Positions 4,932 through 16,628 of a DNA stretch of 64,000 nucleotides are shown here, piece after piece (within the stretch, counting starts at the first letter, position 1; each line of letters opens with the position of its first letter). The DNA comes from Candidatus Levyibacteriota bacterium (GTDB lineage Bacteria; Patescibacteriota; Microgenomatia; Levybacterales; UBA12049). A program made the translations under genes and the position numbers. The notes beneath the pieces are model-generated. The model was not told the DNA's origin. It ran no database searches and saw nothing but the letters and a program-made list of their open reading frames with translations. The stretch is taken from positions 64,019 through 128,018 of the forward strand of contig JAYRIM010000023.1 in the NCBI GenBank assembly GCA_041906785.1, given 5' to 3'.

Positions 4932-6065
4932 TTAAACGTTCGAAGATCCTTTATAGACTTTTGGCGTTAACCAATCAGTCGGAGGATTTATATCATCGAA
5001 ATTATTTTGCTGTTCCTGTGGTGGAAGAGTTACCTGCTGTAATTGTGGCTGTCTTTGCTGTACAGGCTGTTGTTGTGGTTGGGATTGCTGTTGATTTTGC
5101 TGAGCAGGTTGCTGCTGTTGGCGACGTTGATCAAACTGTGGTCTGCGATCCCTGTTATCATTTCTATCAGATTGACGTTGGTCGAATTGTCTTCTATCAC
5201 GATTATCTCGTTGCTGCTGAGACTGCTGTTGAGGTTGCTGTTGAACCACTGGGCGTTGTTGTTGAAAATTTCCTTGAGGTTGCGTCTGCGGTTGAGGTTG
5301 TCGCATTTGTTGTGTAGTTGTAGGCACTTGCTGAGTTCGTGAACGGACAGCTCCTTGTCTCATAAGAATACCTGCCATTTCAAAAGCTATGGGAGTTGTT
5401 CGTGGACTTTGGAAATTTTCTGTTCCATATGAAATACCATCAATAAGATTCTGAGCGATATCAACATCAAGTGGAGCTTTCAAGTCATTTAATACTTGAA
5501 CAATCTGTTCACTTACAGACGATGCTCGTGGATTTACAATAACAATATCGCCAAATCCTTGATTTTCTTGTTTATTATCGATGTTAACAAGTGTAACATT
5601 CTTTAACGCGTCAGGGCTAAATGCTGAATGAATATCTGCTAACCGTGGAGTACCAACCACAAAGAGTAAATCTAACTCACCATTTCCTCGGGTATAACGC
5701 ACATCTTGTTCACTGAATGTAAGGCCTTGGTCTCCAGCTTTAACGACAATATTCAGATACCCATTTTCGATCGTATATGATACTTTCTCGATGTCACCCT
5801 CACGATAGGGGAACGATACCACCAGATCAGCTCCTCCACCTTCATAACGAGTTTTTACTTTATCAACACCCACGAGGTTAGAGACTTCGACAATAGGTTC
5901 AGTAGCGGAAAGTACTGCAGTATTTTTACCCATAGCTTGGAGGGAGAGATAGAGAGAAAGAGCAGCAGCCATTTCATCAATTGAGGGCTCTTTACCCACT
6001 GCTACGGCTACTGATTTACTACGTTGTAGCGCTTCTTTTAGGCGCTGAAGTGTCGCATTGTCCAT
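4932..6065 (-). CDS. NrnA-like DHH/DHHA1-fold protein with degenerate catalytic motifs and a Gln/Pro/Arg-rich C-terminal tail
   Basis: Aligns to B. subtilis NrnA (LLFVVGTPRLADI ~ LVIVCDTANQERI; PRASSVSEQIVQVL ~ TSASSVSEMIYELY). DHH motif is IDNKQEN instead of IDHHPNE. The N-terminal DxD motif reads SID. No GGGH motif. Tail: QQQRDNRDRRQFDQRQSDRNDNRDRRPQFDQRRQQQQ… Occupies the infB/rpsO position where nrnA, rbfA and truB are often found. Confidence 0.6.
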   Translation of the reverse strand: MDNATLQRLKEALQRSKSVAVAVGKEPSIDEMAAALSLYLSLQAMGKNTAVLSATEPIVEVSNLVGVDKVKTRYEGGGADLVVSFPYREGDIEKVSYTIENGYLNIVVKAGDQGLTFSEQDVRYTRGNGELDLLFVVGTPRLADIHSAFSPDALKNVTLVNIDNKQENQGFGDIVIVNPRASSVSEQIVQVLNDLKAPLDVDIAQNLIDGISYGTENFQSPRTTPIAFEMAGILMRQGAVRSRTQQVPTTTQQMRQPQPQTQPQGNFQQQRPVVQQQPQQQSQQQRDNRDRRQFDQRQSDRNDNRDRRPQFDQRRQQQQPAQQNQQQSQPQQQPVQQRQPQLQQVTLPPQEQQNNFDDINPPTDWLTPKVYKGSSNV

Positions 6066-6090
6066 ATATCCTATATTATAATTTGTTCAA

Positions 6091-7551
6091 TTATGCGACT
6101 GATATTATCATATCTCCTATAGTAATGTCAAGCTGGTGAGACAAAACTATCCCTGCCTCACCTTTTGTTACTTTTGAAGTTACATTTTTACCTACTCTTA
6201 AGGATTGAATAGTAGTTTCTCCTATTACTGTGTCACCACGAAGAACACGTATTTTATCTCCACGAACGATTCTTCCTTCAATAATGGAAATTCCATAAGC
6301 AAATGTCTTTTCAAATGGAAACTTTGCAAGGATTTTTGCTTTTCCTAGTTCAGTCTCAAGCTGCATTTGTTTTTTACCTTCTATAACATCGGCTATCTCG
6401 TCAAGCATTTCATAGATAATCTGATAATTTTTAATTAATACCTTTTCAGCCAAGGCTAACCTTTGAACCTCGGGACGTATTTTTACATTAAAACTCAATG
6501 CTAGAGCACCTGTGGCTTTTGCCTGTAGAACGTCAGCCTCGGTTACCTCACCAGTTTTTTGTGTAACGATAGTCACTTCCTTCGGCAGTGCGGCTACAAT
6601 AGCCTCGAGTGCACCTTCAGTATCAGCTGCTAAAATAAGATAGAGCGTATCACCATCTTGAGGCTTATGATAGAGAACATCTTCTGGTTTTCTTTCAGCT
6701 TCCTTAGCTGAAACTGTAACTTCAGCTTGTTTGGGAGTCACTATGCTTCCAACAGGTAAAACATCAGGAGCGCCTAGAATTTCTACTCCTTCTCCTACTG
6801 AGGCTTTATCAATAGGTTTTCCAAGATAATTCAGTACTGTCCTTAACCTGAATGTTTTTCCTTCACATGATACTTCTTCTCGTGTATGTAAGGTTCCTTG
6901 CTTAATAATAATCGTAGATTTAGCACCAGCGCGTGGATCGAGCTTTGATTCAATAACAATAGCCTTCAAGGCAGCAGAAGAAGAAGCTTTTTGATGAACT
7001 CCCCGCAGTTCAGATACTAATAAAATAAGATCAAGTAATTCTTTCATATTCTCACCTTTTTTTGCAGATACTTCTATAACAGGAATATCGCCACCATATC
7101 CTTCAAGAAGTACATTTTCACGAAGGAGTTGTTGTTTCACTTTTTCTACGTTTTTCGTTGGTAAGTCACTCATAGTTAACACAACGATAATAGGAAGATT
7201 TGCTGATTGAAGTAATTTTATACTCTCTCGTGTCTGTGGCATTACACCATCGACAGCAGAAACAATCAATAATCCAATATCAGCAGCTTGTGCTCCACGA
7301 CTACGCATGTTAGTAAATGCTTCATGACCTGGAGTATCGATAAACGTTATACGTCTCTTTTTACCTTCGTATTCCACTTCAACAGAAGATGATCCAATTC
7401 CTTGTGTAATACCACCATACTCGCGTTGAGCAACTGAAGTTTTTCTTAGAGCATCTAAAAGAGTAGTTTTACCATGATCGACATGACCTAATACAGTTAC
7501 AACTGGAGGAAAATCCCAATTTGTTTTCTGCTCTATATGTGTATTCTGCAT
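6091..7551 (-). CDS. infB: Translation initiation factor IF-2, short form (G domain + domain II + C-terminal domain, no N-terminal extension)
   Basis: VVTVLGHVDHGKTTLLDALRKT, DTPGHEAF, NKxD-like TMSDL. 486 aa. Confidence 0.95.
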   Translation of the reverse strand: MQNTHIEQKTNWDFPPVVTVLGHVDHGKTTLLDALRKTSVAQREYGGITQGIGSSSVEVEYEGKKRRITFIDTPGHEAFTNMRSRGAQAADIGLLIVSAVDGVMPQTRESIKLLQSANLPIIVVLTMSDLPTKNVEKVKQQLLRENVLLEGYGGDIPVIEVSAKKGENMKELLDLILLVSELRGVHQKASSSAALKAIVIESKLDPRAGAKSTIIIKQGTLHTREEVSCEGKTFRLRTVLNYLGKPIDKASVGEGVEILGAPDVLPVGSIVTPKQAEVTVSAKEAERKPEDVLYHKPQDGDTLYLILAADTEGALEAIVAALPKEVTIVTQKTGEVTEADVLQAKATGALALSFNVKIRPEVQRLALAEKVLIKNYQIIYEMLDEIADVIEGKKQMQLETELGKAKILAKFPFEKTFAYGISIIEGRIVRGDKIRVLRGDTVIGETTIQSLRVGKNVTSKVTKGEAGIVLSHQLDITIGDMIISVA

Positions 7552-7585
7552 AATAATTCCTTCTTAAATGAAGCTTTCTACTGTA

Positions 7586-7674
7586 ATTTCCAATCACCAA
7601 TTGCAATTTTCGAATTAATTGACTAATTAACGAATTCATAATTAATTGGAAACTGGAAATTCGAGATTGGAAAC
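7586..7674. repeat. AT-rich imperfect inverted repeat (AATTTCCAATC … GATTGGAAA, with internal AATTAATT palindromes) in the nusA-infB intergenic region
   Basis: Outer arms are exact reverse complements (TTTCCAATC / GATTGGAAA). Three AATTAATT palindromic cores inside. Confidence 0.5.
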
Positions 7675-7698
7675 TCTCCTATCGAATTTCATAAATGA

Positions 7699-8919
7699 TT
7701 ACTTAGTCTCCTCAGTTGGCGTTTGCACATCATTCGAGGTTTCAACTGTTTCTTCAGGAGTCTCAACTGCTTCAGTAGTTTTTACTTCTTCGCTTGCCGT
7801 GGTCACATCTTGGGTATCATCTTGAGTTGTCTGCGATGATGAATCTGTTTGTACATCTGAAGATGTTGATTCCTTCGCTTCAGTTTCTTCAGCTGGCGCA
7901 GCGGCCTCCGCTTCTTTTGCTGCTCCGGGCTCCTCTTTTCCTTCAATCTCTATACGATATCCTGTTAATTTTGAAGCTATTCGAACATTTTGACCATCTT
8001 TTCCAATTGCCAATGATAATTCTTCTTTTGGAACTGAAACAACTGCAAGTTTTTCATCCTCTTTTAGCGTCACACTGATATTTTTCGCTGGGGACAATGC
8101 TTGTGTGATATATACTTTCGAATCTTCAGACCACTGGATGATATCAATCTTTTCAATGCCACCAAATTCTTGAATAATTGCTTGCACACGGACACCTTTT
8201 TGGCCAACACAACTTCCAACTGGATCAATTCCTTGCTGATTTGATGCAACGGCGATTTTCGTCCTATTTCCTGCTTCTCTCGCGATTGCTTTAACAATGA
8301 CACTACCTTGGGCAACTTCAGGTACTTCTCGACGGAATAATCCTTCAATAAGCCCTGCATGAGATCGAGAAACAACAATTTCTTCACCTTTTAATCCTTC
8401 TCTAATCTCCTTAAGATACACTGCAAATCGTTGATTTAAGTGATATTTCTCTTGGGAGATCTGCTCTGTCGGGGGCATAATAGCTTCTGTTTTTCCAATA
8501 TCAACAATAATATTTTGGCCAGCAAACCGTAGTACCATTCCATTGACGACTGTTCCAATTTTTACTCGATAATCTGAAAAAATTGCTTCTTTTTCCTTTT
8601 CACGAATTTTCTGCAAGATAACTTGTTTCGCAGTTTGCGCGGCAATTCTTCCAAATCCAGGAGGTGTTACATCTTCATCATTATGAAAGATTCTAGCTTC
8701 ACCTGTAGATGAATTAAGTTCTGCACGGTATTCTTCAACCTCAACTCCTGGATGATCCTTTCTATAAGCAGCGAGAATCGCGTTTTTTACAGTCTCTAAA
8801 ACAACATTTGGATCGACTCCTCGCTCGGAAGCAACCTGATTAAGAGCTAACACAAATTCTGATCTTTGTACAACTGGCATAGTAGGGTACAGTATAGCAA
8901 ATAAGCATGTTACGATCAA
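7699..8919 (-). CDS. nusA: Transcription termination/antitermination factor NusA with an acidic Thr/Glu-rich C-terminal tail
   Basis: N-terminal domain, S1 and two KH regions (GxxG: IGKDGQNVRIASKLTG). Likely true start at the internal MPVVQRSEF (about 8880). Tail AEETEAKESTSSDVQTDSSSQTTQDD…. Confidence 0.9.
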   Translation of the reverse strand: MIVTCLFAILYPTMPVVQRSEFVLALNQVASERGVDPNVVLETVKNAILAAYRKDHPGVEVEEYRAELNSSTGEARIFHNDEDVTPPGFGRIAAQTAKQVILQKIREKEKEAIFSDYRVKIGTVVNGMVLRFAGQNIIVDIGKTEAIMPPTEQISQEKYHLNQRFAVYLKEIREGLKGEEIVVSRSHAGLIEGLFRREVPEVAQGSVIVKAIAREAGNRTKIAVASNQQGIDPVGSCVGQKGVRVQAIIQEFGGIEKIDIIQWSEDSKVYITQALSPAKNISVTLKEDEKLAVVSVPKEELSLAIGKDGQNVRIASKLTGYRIEIEGKEEPGAAKEAEAAAPAEETEAKESTSSDVQTDSSSQTTQDDTQDVTTASEEVKTTEAVETPEETVETSNDVQTPTEETK

Positions 8920-8939: not shown

Positions 8940-9614
8940 CTATTTTTCCTTTTTAAATAACTTATATTGTTGAAGAAGAAGAAAAAGAGCTGGCAATAAC
9001 AGAAGATAGAGAAAACCTACCGAACTACTGTGTTTAACTATATATTTATATGTAACATCACTAAAATAATAGAGAGCGATATTTGGCAGCTCAGAAAGTG
9101 CTGTCGCAAAGAAAAATATTCTAAAATTAATCTTACTTAGCCCTGCGATATAACTAATGAAATCCATAATAGGCGCTGTTGTCAAACGAATTCCCAAAAA
9201 TGCTAGAAATTCTTTTTTCCTTGAAACCTTTTCTTCCCAGGCATGTAATTGTTGGAGAGGTACAAAACGTGAAACTAATGGTTTTCGATATACTCGAGCA
9301 ATCCAAAAAGCTATCGATGCACCGATAATAATTCCTAAAAATGCGAATATATAAGACCACAACCATCCATAAATAGGAATTAATAAAAATGATAATATAC
9401 CCCCTGGAATGGGAGGAATAACTACTGCGAGGATACGCCAAATAATTACAATGATGGGAGCGAGAATAACGTGCGCAATTGCAAAAGCCACGATTTGTTC
9501 TTGATTTGCAGGAAACCAAAAAAGAAAAAAAATAATAAGCAAAGAAGTTATGAGAAAAGATATATTAATAAGTCCTCGGGATTTCATAGTAGTATTATCG
9601 GAGAACAAAGGCAT
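8940..9614 (-). CDS. DedA/TVP38/TMEM64-family membrane protein
   Basis: Multi-TM protein with the VIPPIPGG motif characteristic of the DedA/SNARE-associated family. Start overlaps the stop of the upstream ClpB-like gene (TAATG). Confidence 0.65.
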   Translation of the reverse strand: MPLFSDNTTMKSRGLINISFLITSLLIIFFLFWFPANQEQIVAFAIAHVILAPIIVIIWRILAVVIPPIPGGILSFLLIPIYGWLWSYIFAFLGIIIGASIAFWIARVYRKPLVSRFVPLQQLHAWEEKVSRKKEFLAFLGIRLTTAPIMDFISYIAGLSKINFRIFFFATALSELPNIALYYFSDVTYKYIVKHSSSVGFLYLLLLPALFLLLQQYKLFKKEK

Positions 9615-12187
9615 TATTGTACAGCAACTATAATAGTATTCCCTTCATCAGTCGTCATCGTAAGGGTATTACCACGTTGTATCTCATCACGAAGTTTTTT
9701 CTGTGCAATAATATCCTCAACAGTGTCCTGAATATATCGTCGTAAAGGACGAGCACCGAACTGTTGATTAAAGCCTTCTTTCATAACTTTATTAAGAAGT
9801 CTATCATCGTACGAAAATGTTATATCCTGTTCGGCCAATCGCTTTTTAATACCATCTAACATAATTCGTGCTATGGAGCCCATTTCTGCTTCTCCTAAAG
9901 GCTTAAAGATAATAACATCGTCAAATCTATTCAATAATTCAGGTCTAAATAAACCCTTTTTCTGCAATTCATCAAGTAATCTATTCGAAAATTCATCTGT
10001 GACAGCAGAACCCTTTTCAATCTCCTCACGAATAAATTCTGCTCCCGCGTTTGATGTAGCAATAACAATACTGCTCGCAAAACTTACTGTTCGCCCTTTA
10101 TTATCTGTCAATCGTCCATCTTCAAGTACTTGCAAGAATAAATCAAGAATTTTAGGATGCGCTTTTTCAAATTCGTCAAGAAGTACTAAAGAAAATGGAT
10201 GATCTGCAATTTTATCTGTTAGTTCACCCCGCTCTTGTCCTTCACCAGGAGGAGCCCCAAGTAGTCTTTTTTCTCCTTCTATATCTGAATATTCACTCAT
10301 ATCAAGACGTATCATTTTATCTTCTCCACCGAAATAAAGTTCTGCTAACGCTTTCGCTGTTTCTGTTTTACCTACGCCTGTTGGGCCAAGGAAGAGGAAT
10401 GAGATAGGCCGTTTCATTGTGGTCATCCCCGCACGTAATCTTCGCATCGCTTCTGCTATAGCACGAATAGCATCCTCCTGTGCAATAACTCGCTTGTGCA
10501 TCAATTCTTCAAGGTGTAGCAGTATATCTTTTTCTTTCGCCGTGGGTTGGGATATAACAATGTGCGTTTTTTCTTGTATTGCGGTAACAATATCATCACC
10601 TCCAACAAATACTGTTTTCGTCTTACTAAACAAACCGCCAGCACCATGACTACGTGATGCAACAGTGTGGGAAACATCTTCTAAAACATTTACAGCACTT
10701 CCAGGTAATGCAGCTTCCTGGAAAAATCTATCGGCGTAATCTACTGCATTTTCAATTGCTTTGTAAGTCAACACAACTCTATTTTTTTCTTCAACTGCCG
10801 ATGCCCTTTCGAGAACCATTTTCATAGCTGTATGTTTATCTGGCTCTTCTAACTTAATAACAGTAAATGCTTCGAGCAATGAACTTTTTTCAATAAATGT
10901 TTTAAAATTACCTACCGTGACTGTCCCAATAACAGGCGTTTTTCCGGAAGTTAGATAAGGATATAGTGCACCAGATAAATCAATTTCGTAGGATGACGAT
11001 CCTGTAATGTTCTGTAATTCAGGAATGTATATCACTACATTTCCTGAGTGACTAACTTCTTCAATGATGGCTTGTAAACGACTTTCTAATTCTGCACGAT
11101 TTGCAGCGCCTGCGATGAGAGGACCTACCATAAGCTCAAGAACCTTAATATGAGGAACGCTTAATGATGTACTGTGAAGAAAGCTTTCTGTTGCCAATAA
11201 AGATACAAGATTTTCTCTACCACTACCTGGATCACCAACTAAGAGTATACTATTATTTTCTCGTTTAGAAAGAGTCTCAAGCATCTGTATAAATTCTTTT
11301 TCCCTACCAGTAATTTCTGGTTTCTTTTCAAATGCTTCATAAGAAAAATTTACAGTATATTTTTTCGTCTCATATGTCCATCCAGTTGTGAGTCCTTCAC
11401 CAATTCCACTACCATACATATGAACACGGCGTTTTTTCGGTTTTTCCTCATAAGGATACATATGTCTTGCCCAAGAAAGAATTTGCATAAGTTCTTCTTG
11501 TTTCAGTTGATGATTGAAAAGCAATTTGGTTTGTTGTTCTGTTAAAAAAAGATACGATCCGAATATATCAATTGAAGTTATATATGTTCCGCGAACACTT
11601 TTCGCTAGTTCGGCTGCATAGGTTATAACCTGTGTTAATGGAATATCTAGCAGCTGTATCGATTGCTTTTCAACTGGAATTTTATTCATTATGAATTGGA
11701 CTTGTTCATAATCCAGTAAGGAATATACAACTTGTTTTGTATTCTGATATACCAAAATTTTTTCTAATGCCTCTCGAGTCATCGATTCATACCAATTTTG
11801 ATCTTTATTATTTACTACTGAAATAACGGGTAAAACCTTTGCTATTTTATGCCTAAAGAAAAGCTCGATCTGTAAAGTAACAGAAAGGAAAAAAAGTGGA
11901 AGTTTTATATTTCCATGTTCACGAAATGTATTAAAAAACCAAACAGAAATGAAAAAAAGAACAACGACTCGTAATGTTCTCATAAGCGCTGTCTTATAAA
12001 AGTGATAAATCTTTGTATACGCCACCATATTTAAAAATGTATAAAAAGCTGAACGATAGTTACAACAGGCCAGGCCAGAAATAAAAGGAGAAATGCAATT
12101 TGAAATATTAGGATAACTGATAATAAAAGGAAACTGATAAGGATAAGTAATGTTTTTATACCTATTCCCATTCCTATTGAAAACCAA
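9614..12187 (-). CDS. Membrane-anchored ClpB/ClpC-like double-AAA+ protein with a degenerate first Walker A and no M-domain
   Basis: N-terminus from MRTLRVVVLFFISVWFF (probable start near 11983) has about 2 TM helices. NBD1 Walker A reads GDPGSGRE instead of GxxGxGKT. NBD2 is intact: GPTGVGKTETAKALAE, LVLLDEFEKAHP, sensor RPELLNRFDDVIIF. No IGF/LGF ClpP loop. Confidence 0.75.
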   Translation of the reverse strand: MVFNRNGNRYKNITYPYQFPFIISYPNISNCISPFISGLACCNYRSAFYTFLNMVAYTKIYHFYKTALMRTLRVVVLFFISVWFFNTFREHGNIKLPLFFLSVTLQIELFFRHKIAKVLPVISVVNNKDQNWYESMTREALEKILVYQNTKQVVYSLLDYEQVQFIMNKIPVEKQSIQLLDIPLTQVITYAAELAKSVRGTYITSIDIFGSYLFLTEQQTKLLFNHQLKQEELMQILSWARHMYPYEEKPKKRRVHMYGSGIGEGLTTGWTYETKKYTVNFSYEAFEKKPEITGREKEFIQMLETLSKRENNSILLVGDPGSGRENLVSLLATESFLHSTSLSVPHIKVLELMVGPLIAGAANRAELESRLQAIIEEVSHSGNVVIYIPELQNITGSSSYEIDLSGALYPYLTSGKTPVIGTVTVGNFKTFIEKSSLLEAFTVIKLEEPDKHTAMKMVLERASAVEEKNRVVLTYKAIENAVDYADRFFQEAALPGSAVNVLEDVSHTVASRSHGAGGLFSKTKTVFVGGDDIVTAIQEKTHIVISQPTAKEKDILLHLEELMHKRVIAQEDAIRAIAEAMRRLRAGMTTMKRPISFLFLGPTGVGKTETAKALAELYFGGEDKMIRLDMSEYSDIEGEKRLLGAPPGEGQERGELTDKIADHPFSLVLLDEFEKAHPKILDLFLQVLEDGRLTDNKGRTVSFASSIVIATSNAGAEFIREEIEKGSAVTDEFSNRLLDELQKKGLFRPELLNRFDDVIIFKPLGEAEMGSIARIMLDGIKKRLAEQDITFSYDDRLLNKVMKEGFNQQFGARPLRRYIQDTVEDIIAQKKLRDEIQRGNTLTMTTDEGNTIIVAVQ

Positions 12188-12366
12188 ATTAATCCTTGTC
12201 TATACTCATTTTTAAGAGGCTGGAAAAATGTACGAAGTAAAAGTGGTAAAGAAAATAATTGTAAAAATGCAGTGTTAAATGATAAAAAATAACGGATAAT
12301 TTCTTCAGGAGCTTCCCGATACCAAAATTTTAAAAAATCTATAGGAAGAAATAAATATGTTTGCAT
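12031..12366 (-). CDS. Small hypothetical polytopic membrane protein
   Basis: 111-aa hydrophobic ORF directly upstream of the ClpB-like gene, in a different frame. No recognisable family. Confidence 0.3.
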   Translation of the reverse strand: MQTYLFLPIDFLKFWYREAPEEIIRYFLSFNTAFLQLFSLPLLLRTFFQPLKNEYRQGLIWFSIGMGIGIKTLLILISFLLLSVILIFQIAFLLLFLAWPVVTIVQLFIHF

Positions 12367-12405
12367 ATAGCTAGTATAGAAACGATATATGAAAATTACA
12401 AATAG

Positions 12406-12996
12406 CTAGCGTTTAATGAAGCTGAGTTTTTCAAACAAGAGAAAAGATGCGGCAACAGTTCCTGTAGACCAGATCTCTCCTTTCATAATCATACGATATA
12501 CCTCTTCAAACGATAATGTTAAGAGTTCAATATCTTCTGTTATTTCAAGTACTGGTTTTTGTTTTAAAAAAACATCTTTCGCAATAAACATATAAATGTT
12601 ACCTAGTTCTTTGGAAGGATTGTGATTGAACTTTGCTAAAAAGGAGATGGAATCGGATGTGTATCCTGTTTCTTCTAATAATTCTCTTTTTGCAGCTTCG
12701 AATGGGATTTCGTTTTCATCAATATATCCTGCAGGATATTCAATCATAAACTCTCCAACTGCGTGTTTGTACTGTTTTTCTAGAATCAACTTATAATCTT
12801 TCGTTACAGGAATTACCTGTGCAACAGATTTATCCTGCCAAATATAATAGTCGTCAAGAATTTTCCCATTTGGAAGTTGGACTGTGTCCTGGCGAACTTT
12901 AAACCACTTATGATCAAGAGCGAGTCGAGAAGAAAGAGTTTTCCATTTCTTCATATGAATTCCACACAGTATCTCATGTATATTAATCCTTTGCAA
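12406..12996 (-). CDS. NUDIX hydrolase (ADP-ribose/nucleoside diphosphate pyrophosphatase-like)
   Basis: Nudix box GYIDENEIPFEAAKRELLEETGY (GX5EX7REUXEEXGU). The track's first codon is TTG; a likelier ATG start is at 12954 (MKKWKT…). Confidence 0.8.
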   Translation of the reverse strand: MQRINIHEILCGIHMKKWKTLSSRLALDHKWFKVRQDTVQLPNGKILDDYYIWQDKSVAQVIPVTKDYKLILEKQYKHAVGEFMIEYPAGYIDENEIPFEAAKRELLEETGYTSDSISFLAKFNHNPSKELGNIYMFIAKDVFLKQKPVLEITEDIELLTLSFEEVYRMIMKGEIWSTGTVAASFLLFEKLSFIKR

Positions 12997-13321
12997 GGCT
13001 ATTTAGAAAAGAAGAAATAATGGAAAGAAGGACACTAAATAATAAAGCCCACCAAAAAGAGTTTACTCGAAATCCTTCAATAAGAAGGTCTGTAAGAGAA
13101 ATCATTAATGCATTGAGAACAAGCGCAAAAACACCCAATGTAACCAATGTTATGGGGAGTGTTAGGAAAAACAGAATTGGCTTAATTGAGGCGTTAATAA
13201 TGCCTAATACCAATGCAACAATTAAAGCAGTTACAAACGAATCAACATACACTCCTGGTAATAAATATGCCGCAACGAAAACAGCCATTCCACTTATAAA
13301 CCAGTTAATTAATATTTTCAT
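12983..13321 (-). CDS. DUF360 / phage-holin-4-superfamily small membrane protein
   Basis: 112 aa, about 3-4 TM, with GMAVFVAAYLLPGVYVDSFVTALIVALVLGIINASIKPIL matching the DUF360 (YvlD/YqxA-like) pattern. Its ATG overlaps the ClpC-NBD2 stop as ATGA. Confidence 0.6.
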   Translation of the reverse strand: MKILINWFISGMAVFVAAYLLPGVYVDSFVTALIVALVLGIINASIKPILFFLTLPITLVTLGVFALVLNALMISLTDLLIEGFRVNSFWWALLFSVLLSIISSFLNSLAKD

Positions 13322-14979
13322 GATGATTCATGTAATCCATCTACACCTGAAGCATTTATTTCCCCATTTTCTAGTACAGAAACATGAGCTTGTTCGTTCG
13401 CATAGTTTTGTGAGCCTAGACCTACTGTAGCACTTGTTCCTCCTGCCACATATGCTCCACCTGAAGCATAGTTTGGCGGCGGAGTACCTTGAATGAATTG
13501 ATTTGTAAATGATTGATTAGTTTGCACAGATGGCTCATCAGACGGATTTATAGAAGGTGTTGCTGTTGGGTGAGTCGAATCTGGAGACAAAACACTTAAA
13601 GGATCAAAAGATGTCGCTACTGTAGGCGCTGATTGGCCCGTCGAAGGAACTGTCTGCTGTCCATAAACATAAGGTTGCTGTGATAACTGTGGCGTTTGAG
13701 TACTAGAAACTTGAGGTTGAGTATGCTGATCAGGTTGGTCTGTTGTTGGCTGAACCGTGGGGTTGTTTGTCTCCAAAGTAGCTTGAGCTGGCTGTTTTCC
13801 ACCTTCAGGTTTTTTAAACAAGAATTGGTTTGTTCTCGTGTCGTAATCTATCACAATAGTATCTCCTTGAACAAATTGTTTCCCGATGATTTGCAGCGCT
13901 ATTGGATTTTCTATAGATGTCTGGATTAACCTGCGCAACGGACGAGCACCGTACATTGGGTCATAACCTTCTTGTGCAAGCTTATTTAATGCTCTATCGG
14001 TTACTTTTACTGCAAATCCTTGTTCTTTTAATAATTTTGCAGTTTTTTCAAGACCTCGTTTCGCAATACCTACCATATCAGATCTCTGCAGTGGTTTAAA
14101 AATAACAATATCATCATAACGATTAAGTAATTCTGGCCGGAAAAATTTCCGTAGTTCAGTATTAACGACTGTTGATAGTTCAGCAAAATCTTTTTCATAT
14201 TGTTCTTTTGATTTTTCTTTTTTCGCATCTTGTTCACCTAATTTTTCAGTGATCATACCACTACCTATATTAGATGTACAAATGACTATAGTGTTTTTAA
14301 AGGATATCGTATTTCCTTTATTATCAGTTAAACGTCCGTCTTCTAAAAGCTGTAACAGAATATTAAAAACATCAGGATGTGCTTTTTCAACTTCATCAAG
14401 AAGGACTATTGAATATGGTTTCGCTCGAACTGCTTCGGTTAATTGTCCACCTTCTTCATATCCTACATACCCAGGAGGAGCGCCTATTAACTTAGCCACT
14501 TCATGTTTTTCCATATACTCTGACATATCTAAACGAACCATTGCATCATCACGTCCGAATAAAATTTCAGCAAGAGTTTTTGCTAATTCTGTCTTTCCTG
14601 TTCCGGAAGGTCCTAAAAATATAAAAGAGGCAATAGGTCTCTGTCCGCTTGCTAAACCAATTCTGCCACGGCGTACTGCTTCTGCAACTTTAACCACTGC
14701 TTCTTCCTGATCAACAAGTCGAAGATGGATTCTATCTTCAAGTTGCAAGAGTTTTGCGCTTTCATCCTCTGTCAACTTAGAAATTGGTATCCCTGTCCAA
14801 CTACTTACCACATTTTCAACATCACGCTTTGTAACAGCCATGCTATTTTCAACAGGTTCTGGTGTAGTTTGCTTACTCGGTGTAGGTGTACCAGGAGCAG
14901 CAGAAACTGGCTGGACTTCTGTCGCTTGTTGTTTTTCTTCTTTTACATTTACTGTATTTTGGGTATTTTTATCGTTCAT
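13318..14979 (-). CDS. clpC: ClpC/ClpA-type chaperone, C-terminal half (NBD2/D2 AAA+ module) as a separate ORF with a Gln/Thr/Pro-rich C-terminal tail
   Basis: Begins MNDKNTQ…VTKRDVENVVSSWTGIPISKL (canonical D2 start). Walker A GPSGTGKTELAKTLAE, Walker B IVLLDEVEKAHPDVFNILLQLLEDGRLTD, sensor-2 RPELLNRYDDIVIFKPL. No [LIV]G[FL] ClpP-docking loop. Long PTVQPTTDQPDQHTQPQVSSTQTPQ tail. Confidence 0.85.
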   Translation of the reverse strand: MNDKNTQNTVNVKEEKQQATEVQPVSAAPGTPTPSKQTTPEPVENSMAVTKRDVENVVSSWTGIPISKLTEDESAKLLQLEDRIHLRLVDQEEAVVKVAEAVRRGRIGLASGQRPIASFIFLGPSGTGKTELAKTLAEILFGRDDAMVRLDMSEYMEKHEVAKLIGAPPGYVGYEEGGQLTEAVRAKPYSIVLLDEVEKAHPDVFNILLQLLEDGRLTDNKGNTISFKNTIVICTSNIGSGMITEKLGEQDAKKEKSKEQYEKDFAELSTVVNTELRKFFRPELLNRYDDIVIFKPLQRSDMVGIAKRGLEKTAKLLKEQGFAVKVTDRALNKLAQEGYDPMYGARPLRRLIQTSIENPIALQIIGKQFVQGDTIVIDYDTRTNQFLFKKPEGGKQPAQATLETNNPTVQPTTDQPDQHTQPQVSSTQTPQLSQQPYVYGQQTVPSTGQSAPTVATSFDPLSVLSPDSTHPTATPSINPSDEPSVQTNQSFTNQFIQGTPPPNYASGGAYVAGGTSATVGLGSQNYANEQAHVSVLENGEINASGVDGLHESS

Positions 14980-14981
14980 AT

Positions 14982-16628
14982 TTATACAGTTGGTGGTGGC
15001 GCAAAATCAGCAACTGTTGGCGCGCCATATCCTTGGATAGCACCTACTGGTCCATTTCCAATTTGTTCTTGCGCACTTGGTTCTGAGACACTCATCGGCG
15101 CACCTGGAGCAATTGACTCTTGCTCTGCCACCTCTTCTTTTGGTTTCTCTGTTTCTGTTTCTTTTTTATCAGAGCCAGGCTCAGTTTTAATTACTTCTAC
15201 TAATTCCTGCTGTGAATCTGTTTTATTTGAACCGATACGAGGAAGATGCGTTTCAGAACGGCCAAGTTTCACCCATGCAGCTGCTTCATCAAGTAAATCA
15301 ACAGCTTTATCAGGAAGATATCGCTCACCAATATATTTCTTAGATAATTTCACTGCTGCTTCAATTGTTGCATCGCTGATCGTAACACCATGGAACCGCT
15401 CATATTTAGACTTTAACACTTTTAACATCTCCATTGCTGCTTCTTCACTTGGCTCTTCAGCAAGCACAGGCTGGAATCGTCGCTCTAAGGCTTTATCTTT
15501 CTCAAAATTTTTTCTATATTCCATAGTAGTTGTCGCACCAATAATTTGCAATTGGCCACGAGCCAAATGAGGTTTAATTATATTTGACGCATTCATCGAA
15601 TCTCCACCGTCTCCCCCCGCACCCATAAGAATATGAATTTCATCAATAAAAAGAATAACTTGTCCAGCAGCAGCCATCGCTTCCTGGATGACAGTTCGTA
15701 ACCGTTCTTCAAATTCTCCACGATGACTCGCACCCGCAACAATAGATGATAAATCTAACTGAATAATCCGTTTATTAAGTAATTCTTTCGGTGCACTTCC
15801 AGCGACTATCGCTTGCGCTAATCCTTCTATAATGGCAGTTTTTCCTACACCTGCTTCTCCGATAATAATCGGGTTGTTTTTTGTTCTTCTGAGTAGGATA
15901 TGAACAAGTCTGTCAATCTCTTTATCTCTTCCGGCAATTGGATCTAGTTTACCTTCACGAGCTTGCTGGGTTAAATCAATACCAAACCGATCTAATACTG
16001 ACTTTTTCCCATATGCAGACCCATGGGTTTTGGCTAATTTATCCTGAACCTGTTCTTTCTGCATACCTTGTGTCTGTAATAAATTTGAAGTAGGTAACGT
16101 GTCTGAATATAAAGCTAATAATACATCCTCAGGTGTTATAAATGCGGATTCGCGGGATTTCGCATCTCGATACGCTTGTTCGAACACTTGTCTCGACTTA
16201 TCACTGAGGGTGGGCTGTCCCATAAATGATCCTGGTTGTTCTTTACTTTGAATTTCTCTGGTGACTTTTGCTGGATCAACAGAAAAATCTTCAAGTAATT
16301 TAAAAATATCTTCATCATAGAGTAAACCTATGAGAATCTGTTCAGGCTCAATAAAAGGTTGTCTAATTCTTTTCGTTTCCTCCTGTGCGTGTTGAAGAAC
16401 CTGTGTTGCTCGTTGATCTAAATGAGAAAGCGCTGACAAGTTTTGACGAAATGAAGCATTCATTTTAGAACCACCCATCTCTATCTGAGGATTCTGGGGT
16501 GGGGTATTGATGCCTCCACTACCGGACGATTGCATACCTGGCTGCTGTTGAGGGACACCTGCAGCCTGCGATTGCTGCATTGGTGGTGTTTCCTGTTTTT
16601 TAGATTGACTAAATAAATTACCAAACAT
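14982..16628 (-). CDS. clpC: ClpC/ClpA-type chaperone, N-terminal half (Q-rich extension + Clp-N repeats + NBD1/D1 AAA+ module) as a separate ORF
   Basis: Clp N-domain repeats, Walker [17 protein letters not shown], Walker [10 protein letters not shown], then [14 protein letters not shown]. It then runs into a disordered E/K/T/P-rich tail instead of an M-domain. Stop TAA at 14984..14982 is followed 2 nt later by the ATG of the NBD2 ORF (TAATATG). Confidence 0.85.

Follow-up and report, generated by a model that had tools for sequence, protein, structure and literature searches.

Hsp100/Clp ATPases are soluble machines that thread their substrates with tyrosine-bearing pore loops. The Tyr of their second AAA+ module (D2) is needed for translocation in ClpB, ClpA and Hsp104, an [LIV]G[FL] loop is required for docking to ClpP, and the M-domain couples ClpB to DnaK and ClpC to MecA. 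In other AAA+ proteins, i.e., p97/Cdc48, NSF and Pex1/Pex6, one ring is silent and the other ring is the motor, while FtsH and Msp1 depend on an aromatic pore loop, and the Torsins, acting with LAP1 and LULL1, are membrane-associated, have no aromatic pore loops and require their cofactors. We analyzed a 64,000-nt stretch of DNA (hereafter the window) from a Candidatus Levyibacteriota bacterium (GCA_041906785.1, contig JAYRIM010000023.1, positions 64,019 to 128,018), focusing on a gene for a diverged Clp-like ATPase which an earlier note on this DNA had described as a membrane-anchored, double-AAA+ ClpB/ClpC paralog coupled to a DedA-family protein. Our analysis revealed that the locus is a two-gene module specific to Patescibacteria, consisting of a hydrophobic protein of ~110 amino acids (aa) and a Clp-derived double-AAA+ protein.

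The ATPase has the tandem D1-D2 fold, the D2 catalytic motifs and the ClpB_D2-small subdomain in common with ClpC and ClpB, and probably a Clp_N-like domain as well, whereas the predicted membrane hairpin and the obligate small membrane partner belong to the present family only. It further differs from ClpC and ClpB in a D1 that lacks the P-loop Thr (in the window's clade also the Lys), the Walker B Asp, the Arg fingers and the pore Tyr, in a D2 with GEG-x in place of GYVGY, and in having neither M-domain nor ClpP loop. Like p97/Cdc48 with its D1, NSF with its D2 and Pex1/Pex6 with their D1, the protein appears to combine one conserved, non-hydrolysing ring without aromatic pore loops with a second ring that is the motor. 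Those proteins, however, are of the classical AAA clade and not membrane-integral, and their active rings keep aromatic pore loops, whereas the present ATPase is of the HCLR/Clp clade and its active ring has none. The Torsins are similar in being related to the D2 of Clp/Hsp100 proteins, membrane-associated, free of aromatic pore loops and provided with a small membrane partner. However, they are eukaryotic, lumenal proteins with a single AAA+ module that borrow an Arg finger from their cofactor, in contrast to the two modules of this bacterial protein, the second of which has its own invariant Arg finger (NRFD); moreover, the small partner has no homology to LAP1/LULL1, with no match in Pfam or the PDB. 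In FtsH and Msp1/ATAD1 an N-terminal transmembrane anchor puts the hexameric AAA+ ring at the cytoplasmic face of the membrane, as is predicted here. FtsH, however, has a protease domain, which is absent from our ATPase with its two Clp-type AAA+ modules, and the aromatic pore loop on which FtsH and Msp1 rely is missing.

Conservation of the two-gene module

Genome and metagenome scans, together with exact-protein look-ups, yielded 66 family loci, 55 of them non-redundant, whose neighboring genes were located by tblastn. The metagenome scan used a D1-specific alignment; the scan of genome contigs with generic D2 patterns returned mostly ordinary ClpB/ClpC loci (Bacteroidota and others) and about 10 true members. 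All 48 non-redundant loci having upstream DNA contain a small open reading frame (ORF) directly upstream of the ATPase gene and on the same strand. The earlier note had pointed to a small polytopic membrane ORF at this position in the window; the comparison bears this out and goes further, identifying a conserved partner. In the window its stop codon lies 2 nt before the ATPase start, in relatives the two genes overlap, and in some they are fused. Gene callers often miss the partner ORF, as in three loci where tblastn finds it (L081, 4667-4993; L138, 4605-4931; L140, 4663-4986), and in L081 and L138 a short opposite-strand ORF has been called in its place.

In-frame fusions of the small protein with the ATPase were observed in two independent lineages, i.e., a Levybacteria metagenome-assembled genome (MAG; L002, 882 aa, 5689-8334) and locus L120 (819 aa, 5293-7749), which differ in their junctions and in which the hairpin is partly replaced. 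Weaker fused forms were detected in a Daviesbacteria MAG (L017, 852 aa, 362-2923, E 4e-5) and in P0365 (E 8e-4). Taken with the strict adjacency, these fusions speak for a joint action of the small protein and the ATPase in one complex, and the junctions would place the C-terminus of the small protein on the membrane side opposite the AAA+ domains.

Homologs of the small protein comprise 141 matches of ~109 aa, all annotated as 'hypothetical' and all from Patescibacteria; the protein matches nothing in Pfam or NCBIfam even at E <= 10. Its AlphaFold2 (AF2) model, with a predicted local distance difference test (pLDDT) score of 89.8, contains helices at residues 3-37, 40-45 and 57-109, and a Foldseek comparison of this model with the PDB gave no meaningful match (best E 4.3). 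The family shares an invariant FF(K/Q)PLKNEYRxGLxxFS loop, and its long hydrophobic helix contains an invariant K71 and, at a position where the window has Gln, a nearly invariant E89. The small ORF was also weakly detected directly upstream of hairpin-bearing Clp paralogs of 33-36% identity in Paceibacterota and Saccharibacteria MAGs. Both defining elements of the module, a small protein with the FFKPLKNEYRxG motif and a hairpin-bearing Clp paralog, are present in the window.

Extent of the ATPase family

Over 400 full-length homologs (~800 aa) share 48-65% identity with the ATPase, and those with named sources all come from Patescibacteria lineages (Saccharimonadales, Roizmanbacteria and Levybacteria). 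Full-length homologs score E = 0, so that a chance similarity can be dismissed. A profile of the N-terminal region (232 positions), compared with 1.84 billion representative proteins, gave 134 matches, among which 46 are Clp-like and full-length (778-890 aa), most others being shorter and fragment-like. The sole match of at least 770 residues that is not Clp-like, P0323 (2330 aa), aligns nine times with the stretch where the Clp_N-like region starts (profile positions 61-144) and looks like a repeat protein made of this segment. Judging from these searches, the ATPase family is restricted to Patescibacteria, i.e., the Candidate Phyla Radiation (CPR). Searches of the full-text literature returned no description of either the ATPase family or the small protein.

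Mean pairwise identities, computed over an alignment of 30 sequences, are 74% for the large subdomain of D2, 55% for D1, 56% for the family-specific motif GWTxETKKYT that precedes D1, 38% for the Clp_N-like domain and 36% for the hairpin. The family-specific motifs GWTxETKKYT and LPGSA are conserved. An origin by tandem duplication of clpC within the CPR was considered and is not established, the D2 identity to the resident ClpC (42-47%) being no higher than that to ClpB/ClpC of Bacteroidota (44-48%).

Start codon, domain architecture and classification of the ATPase

The earlier note and the NCBI gene call (P0001, 789 aa) let the ATPase begin at MRTL. Because residues 1-15 (MVAYTKIYHFYKTAL) are conserved in homologs and the preceding ATG follows so closely on the stop of the small ORF, the true start is most likely the ATG at 12028 (MVAYTK…), 15 codons further upstream, giving a protein of 804 aa. 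Read from the N-terminus, this protein has a hydrophobic hairpin of two helices, followed by a probable, diverged Clp_N domain and the modules D1 and D2 (Table 1). Pfam is confident for D2 alone (AAA_2, E 1.3e-45; ClpB_D2-small, E 1.5e-21), with a weak match to the D1 lid (AAA_lid_9, E 3.7e-5). A phmmer search of PDB sequences placed Bacillus subtilis ClpC (PDB 3j3s) at the top with E 1e-116. The AF2 model, built with 30 homologs, reached a pLDDT of 83 and a predicted template modelling score of 0.68, and its best Foldseek matches in the PDB were protomers of ClpC, ClpC1 and ClpB, with E down to 7e-53. Pfam, the ClpC alignment, AF2 and Foldseek thus agree with the earlier description of a double-AAA+ Hsp100/Clp paralog, and the tandem AAA+ modules together with the ClpB_D2-small subdomain are those of class I.

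The residue-level alignment to B. subtilis ClpC also corroborated the reported absence of an M-domain and of a ClpP-docking loop. With the D1 match reaching to about residue 460 and that of D2 starting at about 476, too few residues lie between the two for an M-domain, whose coiled coil is seen neither in the alignment nor in the AF2 model. The ClpP loop of ClpC, 'KYVGFNV', aligns with 'EKGSAV' (family consensus KGTxID), which contains no [LIV]G[FL]. As the docking loop is absent, there is no justification for calling these proteins 'ATP-dependent Clp protease ATP-binding subunit', as databases do. The ATPase scores far under every NCBIfam equivalog cut-off, i.e., 443 bits vs 1232 for ClpB (TIGR03346), 387 vs 993 for ClpA and 357 vs 885 for ClpV, in keeping with the earlier statement that it is not a standard chaperone. 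By its predicted fold and its D2 sequence, the protein is a class I Hsp100/Clp ATPase which fails the defining tests of ClpB, ClpA, ClpC and ClpV.

The two N-terminal transmembrane helices that had been proposed are backed by hydropathy, charge distribution and the AF2 helices. Residues 14-32 (19 residues) have a Kyte-Doolittle mean of 1.91 and residues 43-57 (15 residues) one of 1.73, and the loop between the helices has 7 residues in 28 of 30 aligned family members, with 5 and 11 in the remaining two. Lys plus Arg counts of 3.6 in the N-terminal tail, 0.9 in the loop and 2.5 after the second helix follow a positive-inside pattern, and the hairpin is predicted to have both its N- and C-terminus inside. 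In the AF2 model the N-terminal part (pLDDT ~90) shows a short helix, long helices at 14-36 and 42-62, and an all-helical domain at 79-190. An invariant R20 lies at the start of the first hairpin helix, and an invariant E55 lies near the predicted cytoplasmic end of the second.

Pfam Clp_N (PF02861) has no match in the ATPase, and a search of the N-terminal 243 aa against Pfam and NCBIfam gave nothing even at E <= 10. However, the alignment of the NCBIfam ClpA model sets in at residue 109, and hhalign matched this region to the N-domains of canonical CPR ClpC proteins with a probability of 86.6% and E 4.5e-6 over 85 columns. The possibility that the hydrophobic N-terminus is itself a soluble Clp_N domain was rejected: the Clp_N-like domain comes after the hairpin, so the hydrophobic segment has probably been added in front of a Clp_N domain and is not a misread Clp_N.

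A degenerate D1 and a catalytically complete D2 with an atypical pore loop

The earlier note had recognized a dead Walker A motif in D1. The alignment with B. subtilis ClpC upheld this and revealed a wider degeneracy: GEPGVGKT of the ClpC P-loop corresponds to GDPGSGRE, FIDE of Walker B to YIPE (Asp→Pro), ERRF of the Arg fingers to E-AF (both lost), and AGTKYRGEFE of the pore-1 loop to AGAANRAELE (Tyr→Asn). A census of the P-loop in the 120 closest homologs gave GxGKE in 88, GxGKT in 4 and GSGRE in 13, the latter being the window's clade. A sequencing error in the P-loop was rejected because these 13 relatives share GSGRE. Walker B reads P[EDQ] in 104 of 106 close homologs, and none of 110 has an aromatic residue in the D1 pore loop. 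Among 46 distant full-length representatives, D1 never carries a Walker B DE or Arg fingers, and the residue after the P-loop Lys is hypervariable. Since D1 has nevertheless retained more than half of its residues in pairwise comparison, it seems to be under selection while catalytically dead, a pattern typical of scaffold rings.

In addition to the Walker motifs listed in Table 1, D2 contains sensor-1 (ATSNAG, with TSN), the Arg finger (PELLNRFD, with NRFD) and sensor-2 (GARPLRR). These catalytic motifs are invariant or nearly so in the family alignment and are fixed in the 46 distant representatives too. On sequence grounds, D2 appears to be the only competent ATPase of the protein. The earlier description of D2 as fully intact therefore holds for the ATPase motifs; it does not hold for the pore-1 loop, where PPGYVGYDEGGQ of ClpC aligns with PPGE-G-QERGE and GYVGY has given way to a shorter, aromatic-free GEG-Q. 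This loop is 2 residues shorter than in ClpC, acidic and without Tyr (consensus EGxERGE), an aromatic residue is found in none of 116 close homologs, and in all 46 distant representatives the loop is likewise two residues short. A D2 without the canonical pore Tyr weakens the case for extraction by threading.

Gene neighborhood

All features of the window listed in Table 1 with a strand are on the minus strand.

Table 1. Features of the two-gene module and the surrounding gene row; coordinates are those of the window.
Feature	Position	Strand	Basis or remark
hrcA	27551-26808	-	followed by grpE
dnaK	26174-24258	-	followed by a PHP protein gene
dnaJ	23236-22325	-	followed by genes for a solute-binding protein and a nucleotidyltransferase
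Clp ATPase N-domain and D1 ORF, 548 aa	16628-14982	-	
Clp ATPase D2 ORF, 553 aa	14979-13318	-	
PF04020 ('phage holin 4_2') four-helix membrane protein	12983-13321	-	
NUDIX hydrolase	12406-12996	-	
Promoter-like site TTGTAA-17-TATACT	12373..12401	-	consensus scan; just upstream of the small ORF
Small hydrophobic ORF, 111 aa	12366-12031	-	no Pfam/NCBIfam family
Clp/Hsp100-like ATPase, 804 aa	12028-9614 (stop 9616-9614)	-	Pfam, phmmer, AF2, Foldseek
Hydrophobic helical hairpin, residues 14-62 (predicted)	11843..11989	-	hydropathy, K/R distribution, AF2
Diverged Clp_N-like helical domain, residues ~79-190	11459..11794	-	hhalign, NCBIfam ClpA, AF2
D1 AAA+ module, residues 238-460, putative pseudo-ATPase	10649..11317	-	alignment to B. 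subtilis ClpC
D1 P-loop	11236-11213		codons GGT GAT CCA GGT AGT GGT AGA GAA
D1 Walker B	~11038-11015		
D2 AAA+ module, large subdomain 498-708, small subdomain 709-804	9617..10537	-	Pfam, alignment
D2 Walker A, GPTGVGKT	10387-10364	-	
D2 pore-1 loop, GAPPGEGQERGELT	10258-10217	-	atypical
D2 Walker B, LLDEFEKA	10183-10160	-	
DedA/VTT-domain membrane protein, 224 aa	8940-9614	-	PF09335, E 5.6e-18
nusA, infB, 377-aa ORF (4932-6065), PNPase	3' of the DedA gene	-	

Across the family, the usual gene order is clpC, then the small ORF and the ATPase gene, then nusA-infB, in the vicinity of hrcA-grpE-dnaK-dnaJ. The nusA-infB pair lies 3' of the ATPase gene in 26 of the 31 loci with enough downstream DNA, immediately so in 13; in 20 of 55 loci a canonical clpC occurs no more than 6 kb upstream, and in a Roizmanbacteria locus dnaK-dnaJ is found upstream.

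The promoter-like site in front of the small ORF may mark the start of a transcript of the small ORF and the ATPase gene, possibly with DedA. This assignment is weak, as promoter-like sites in the region are no more numerous than in shuffled sequences (25 found vs 27.9 expected) and the position alone is suggestive; terminator counts from the same scan were not above shuffles either. No match to the consensus CIRCE/HrcA operator with up to 3 mismatches was found in the whole 64-kb window, despite its hrcA-grpE-dnaK row, so heat-shock co-regulation could not be supported. An Rfam scan of the window gave no family reaching its gathering score.

The 'canonical' Clp ATPase upstream of the module is encoded in two ORFs that lie 2 nt apart in different frames (13318-16628, minus strand). 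They carry long low-complexity tails rich in Gln, Pro and Thr, at the position of the M-domain and at the C-terminus, and the pore loop of this D1 has His in place of Tyr; an [LIV]G[FL] ClpP loop is likewise lacking. A related locus (L139, GCA_034680565.1) has an equivalent split into 537 and 575 aa, which identifies the split as a real trait of the lineage and not a frameshift error. The order ClpC-D2, PF04020 gene, small ORF and ATPase gene also recurs in L139. In the window, the PF04020 gene overlaps the end of the ClpC-D2 ORF by 4 nt and is itself overlapped by the NUDIX gene. The 377-aa ORF has a very long C-terminal half of low complexity, rich in Gln, Arg and Pro, and related contigs contain an unannotated gene of 356-437 aa at its position, before tsaD.

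Proposed mechanism and alternative explanations

We lean, with moderate confidence, towards a membrane AAA+ complex that is driven by D2, includes the small protein as a subunit and serves proteostasis close to the membrane, probably not by canonical threading. The ATPase would form a hexamer at the cytoplasmic face of the membrane, held by twelve hairpin helices which, together with the small subunits, may constitute one membrane-embedded complex. D1 would serve as a static assembly or scaffold ring, by analogy to p97 D1, NSF D2 and Pex1/6 D1, and D2 as the sole motor, whose ATP hydrolysis would drive a non-canonical action, either upon a client close to the membrane or upon the partner subunit itself. 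D2 could, for example, grip basic segments, or switch its conformation and transmit this change to the membrane part. Without tyrosines in either pore-1 loop, canonical hand-over-hand threading is unlikely, and the short acidic D2 loop (E-G-x-E-R-G-E) points most likely to such a non-canonical action and not to processive threading by a Tyr staircase. The absence of both ClpP docking and M-domain argues against a Clp protease subunit as well as against a ClpB-type disaggregase, and the row of chaperone and housekeeping genes suggests a cellular role in membrane-protein quality control or assembly.

Several observations weigh against this interpretation. Most family members keep the Lys of the D1 P-loop (GxGKE), so D1 may still bind nucleotide. 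Some distant members have Phe or Tyr in or near the D2 loop (GFG, GES-YE), which makes the aromatic-free loop a trait of the window's orthogroup and not of the whole superfamily; the loss of threading may not be general, and non-aromatic loops could still translocate. The second hairpin helix is only moderately hydrophobic in the window's ATPase, its Kyte-Doolittle mean of 1.73 over 15 residues falling to 1.36 over 19. In addition, the neighborhood evidence for proteostasis is weak, given that the rows with nusA-infB and with dnaK are blocks of housekeeping synteny and that the search for a CIRCE operator gave no match.

The main rival is a conventional membrane-tethered threading unfoldase or extractase, similar to Msp1/ATAD1 or to the ATPase part of FtsH, which would use unconventional loops to pull membrane proteins or aggregated ones through its pore, with the small protein as adaptor or substrate receptor. 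The complete D2 motor with its intact trans Arg finger, the overall ClpC fold, the aromatic residues in the D2 loop of those distant members, the proximity of dnaK and clpC, and the retention of a Clp_N-like domain, which in Clp ATPases binds substrates and adaptors, would all fit. However, neither pore-1 loop carries an aromatic residue in any close homolog, the D2 loop is shortened and net acidic where characterized Hsp100 proteins need their D2 Tyr for translocation, and a loop for a peptidase partner is missing; we therefore consider this explanation unlikely, if still a serious one. The charged residues inside hydrophobic helices (E55 of the ATPase, the invariant K71 and the nearly invariant E89 of the partner), the obligate and sometimes fused membrane partner, and the restriction of the family to CPR bacteria, whose life relies on exchange with host cells, could instead fit a membrane conduit with the ATPase as its motor or gate, in which twelve helices and the small subunits would form a ring or pore and D2 would power or gate the passage of a cargo across the membrane, much like HSP101 in the PTEX translocon of Plasmodium or like Bcs1. 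We regard such a conduit as quite improbable, as the pore is purely inferred and the AF2 monomers are silent on a channel, no secretion-system genes are conserved nearby in the loci examined, and export motors of the HSP101 type generally keep their pore tyrosines. A bolder version, which we offer as speculation of low probability, would be an undescribed, CPR-specific and ancient membrane-embedded AAA+ machine, whose non-threading D2 gates or powers an assembly of its own helices and the partner, joined by the intramembrane charges, e.g., as a translocation or insertion device for a reduced, host-dependent envelope.

A role as mere membrane anchor or regulator of the co-encoded ClpC, through mixed hexamers or ring stacking and without a motor role of its own, seems very improbable. 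It would draw on the degenerate D1, on the nearby clpC of some loci and on the division of ClpC into D1 and D2 polypeptides in the window's lineage, which could favor mixed assemblies; however, many loci have no clpC nearby, identity to the resident ClpC is limited to 42-47% in D2 and 24-31% in D1, and the D2 catalytic residues, with the trans Arg finger among them, do not vary and form the best-conserved portion of the protein, which argues for an active ring of its own. The earlier proposal, i.e., that the ATPase and the downstream DedA protein are a translationally coupled pair for membrane-protein extraction or remodelling, linked to lipid or proton motive force homeostasis, rested on an overlap that is real: the TAA of the ATPase gene and the ATG of the gene after it have one base in common (…CAATAATGCC…; TAATG), that second gene belongs to the DedA family as stated, and both products appear to be membrane proteins. 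Synteny, however, largely refutes the pairing and leaves it hardly any credence. An adjacent DedA gene was found in only one of the 55 non-redundant loci, the nearest relative (L141, with an ATPase 83% and a NusA 92% identical), where the overlap is replaced by a 28-nt spacer, whereas in relatives of 61-65% identity the ATPase gene is directly followed by nusA or a DUF2079 gene. The linkage, whose conservation the earlier note had left to be checked, is thus essentially unique to the window's lineage. Since the ATPase family is strongly conserved without DedA, the function of the ATPase cannot depend on it, and DedA is a lineage-specific, probably recent neighbor outside the conserved module. 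The loss of several catalytic and pore motifs might also suggest a decaying, non-functional duplicate of clpC, for which we see practically no chance: a pseudogene is ruled out by the conservation pattern, with hundreds of full-length orthologs at 48-65% identity, invariant D2 motifs, a conserved dead D1, the conserved GWTxETKKYT and LPGSA motifs, and conserved synteny with the partner.

Significance

The family departs from the Hsp100/Clp norm in its predicted membrane hairpin, its seemingly dead ring, the Tyr-less acidic loop of its live ring, the lack of the elements that couple other members to ClpP and DnaK, and its obligate, sometimes fused membrane subunit, and much of the Candidate Phyla Radiation has conserved it with all these departures. 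The DedA gene illustrates that an operon-style overlap with a neighboring gene can be a shallow, lineage-specific accident. The module provides a defined, two-protein target for the envelope and proteostasis biology of ultra-small, largely uncultivated bacteria, and lets one ask what a Clp-type D2 motor does without a canonical pore loop.

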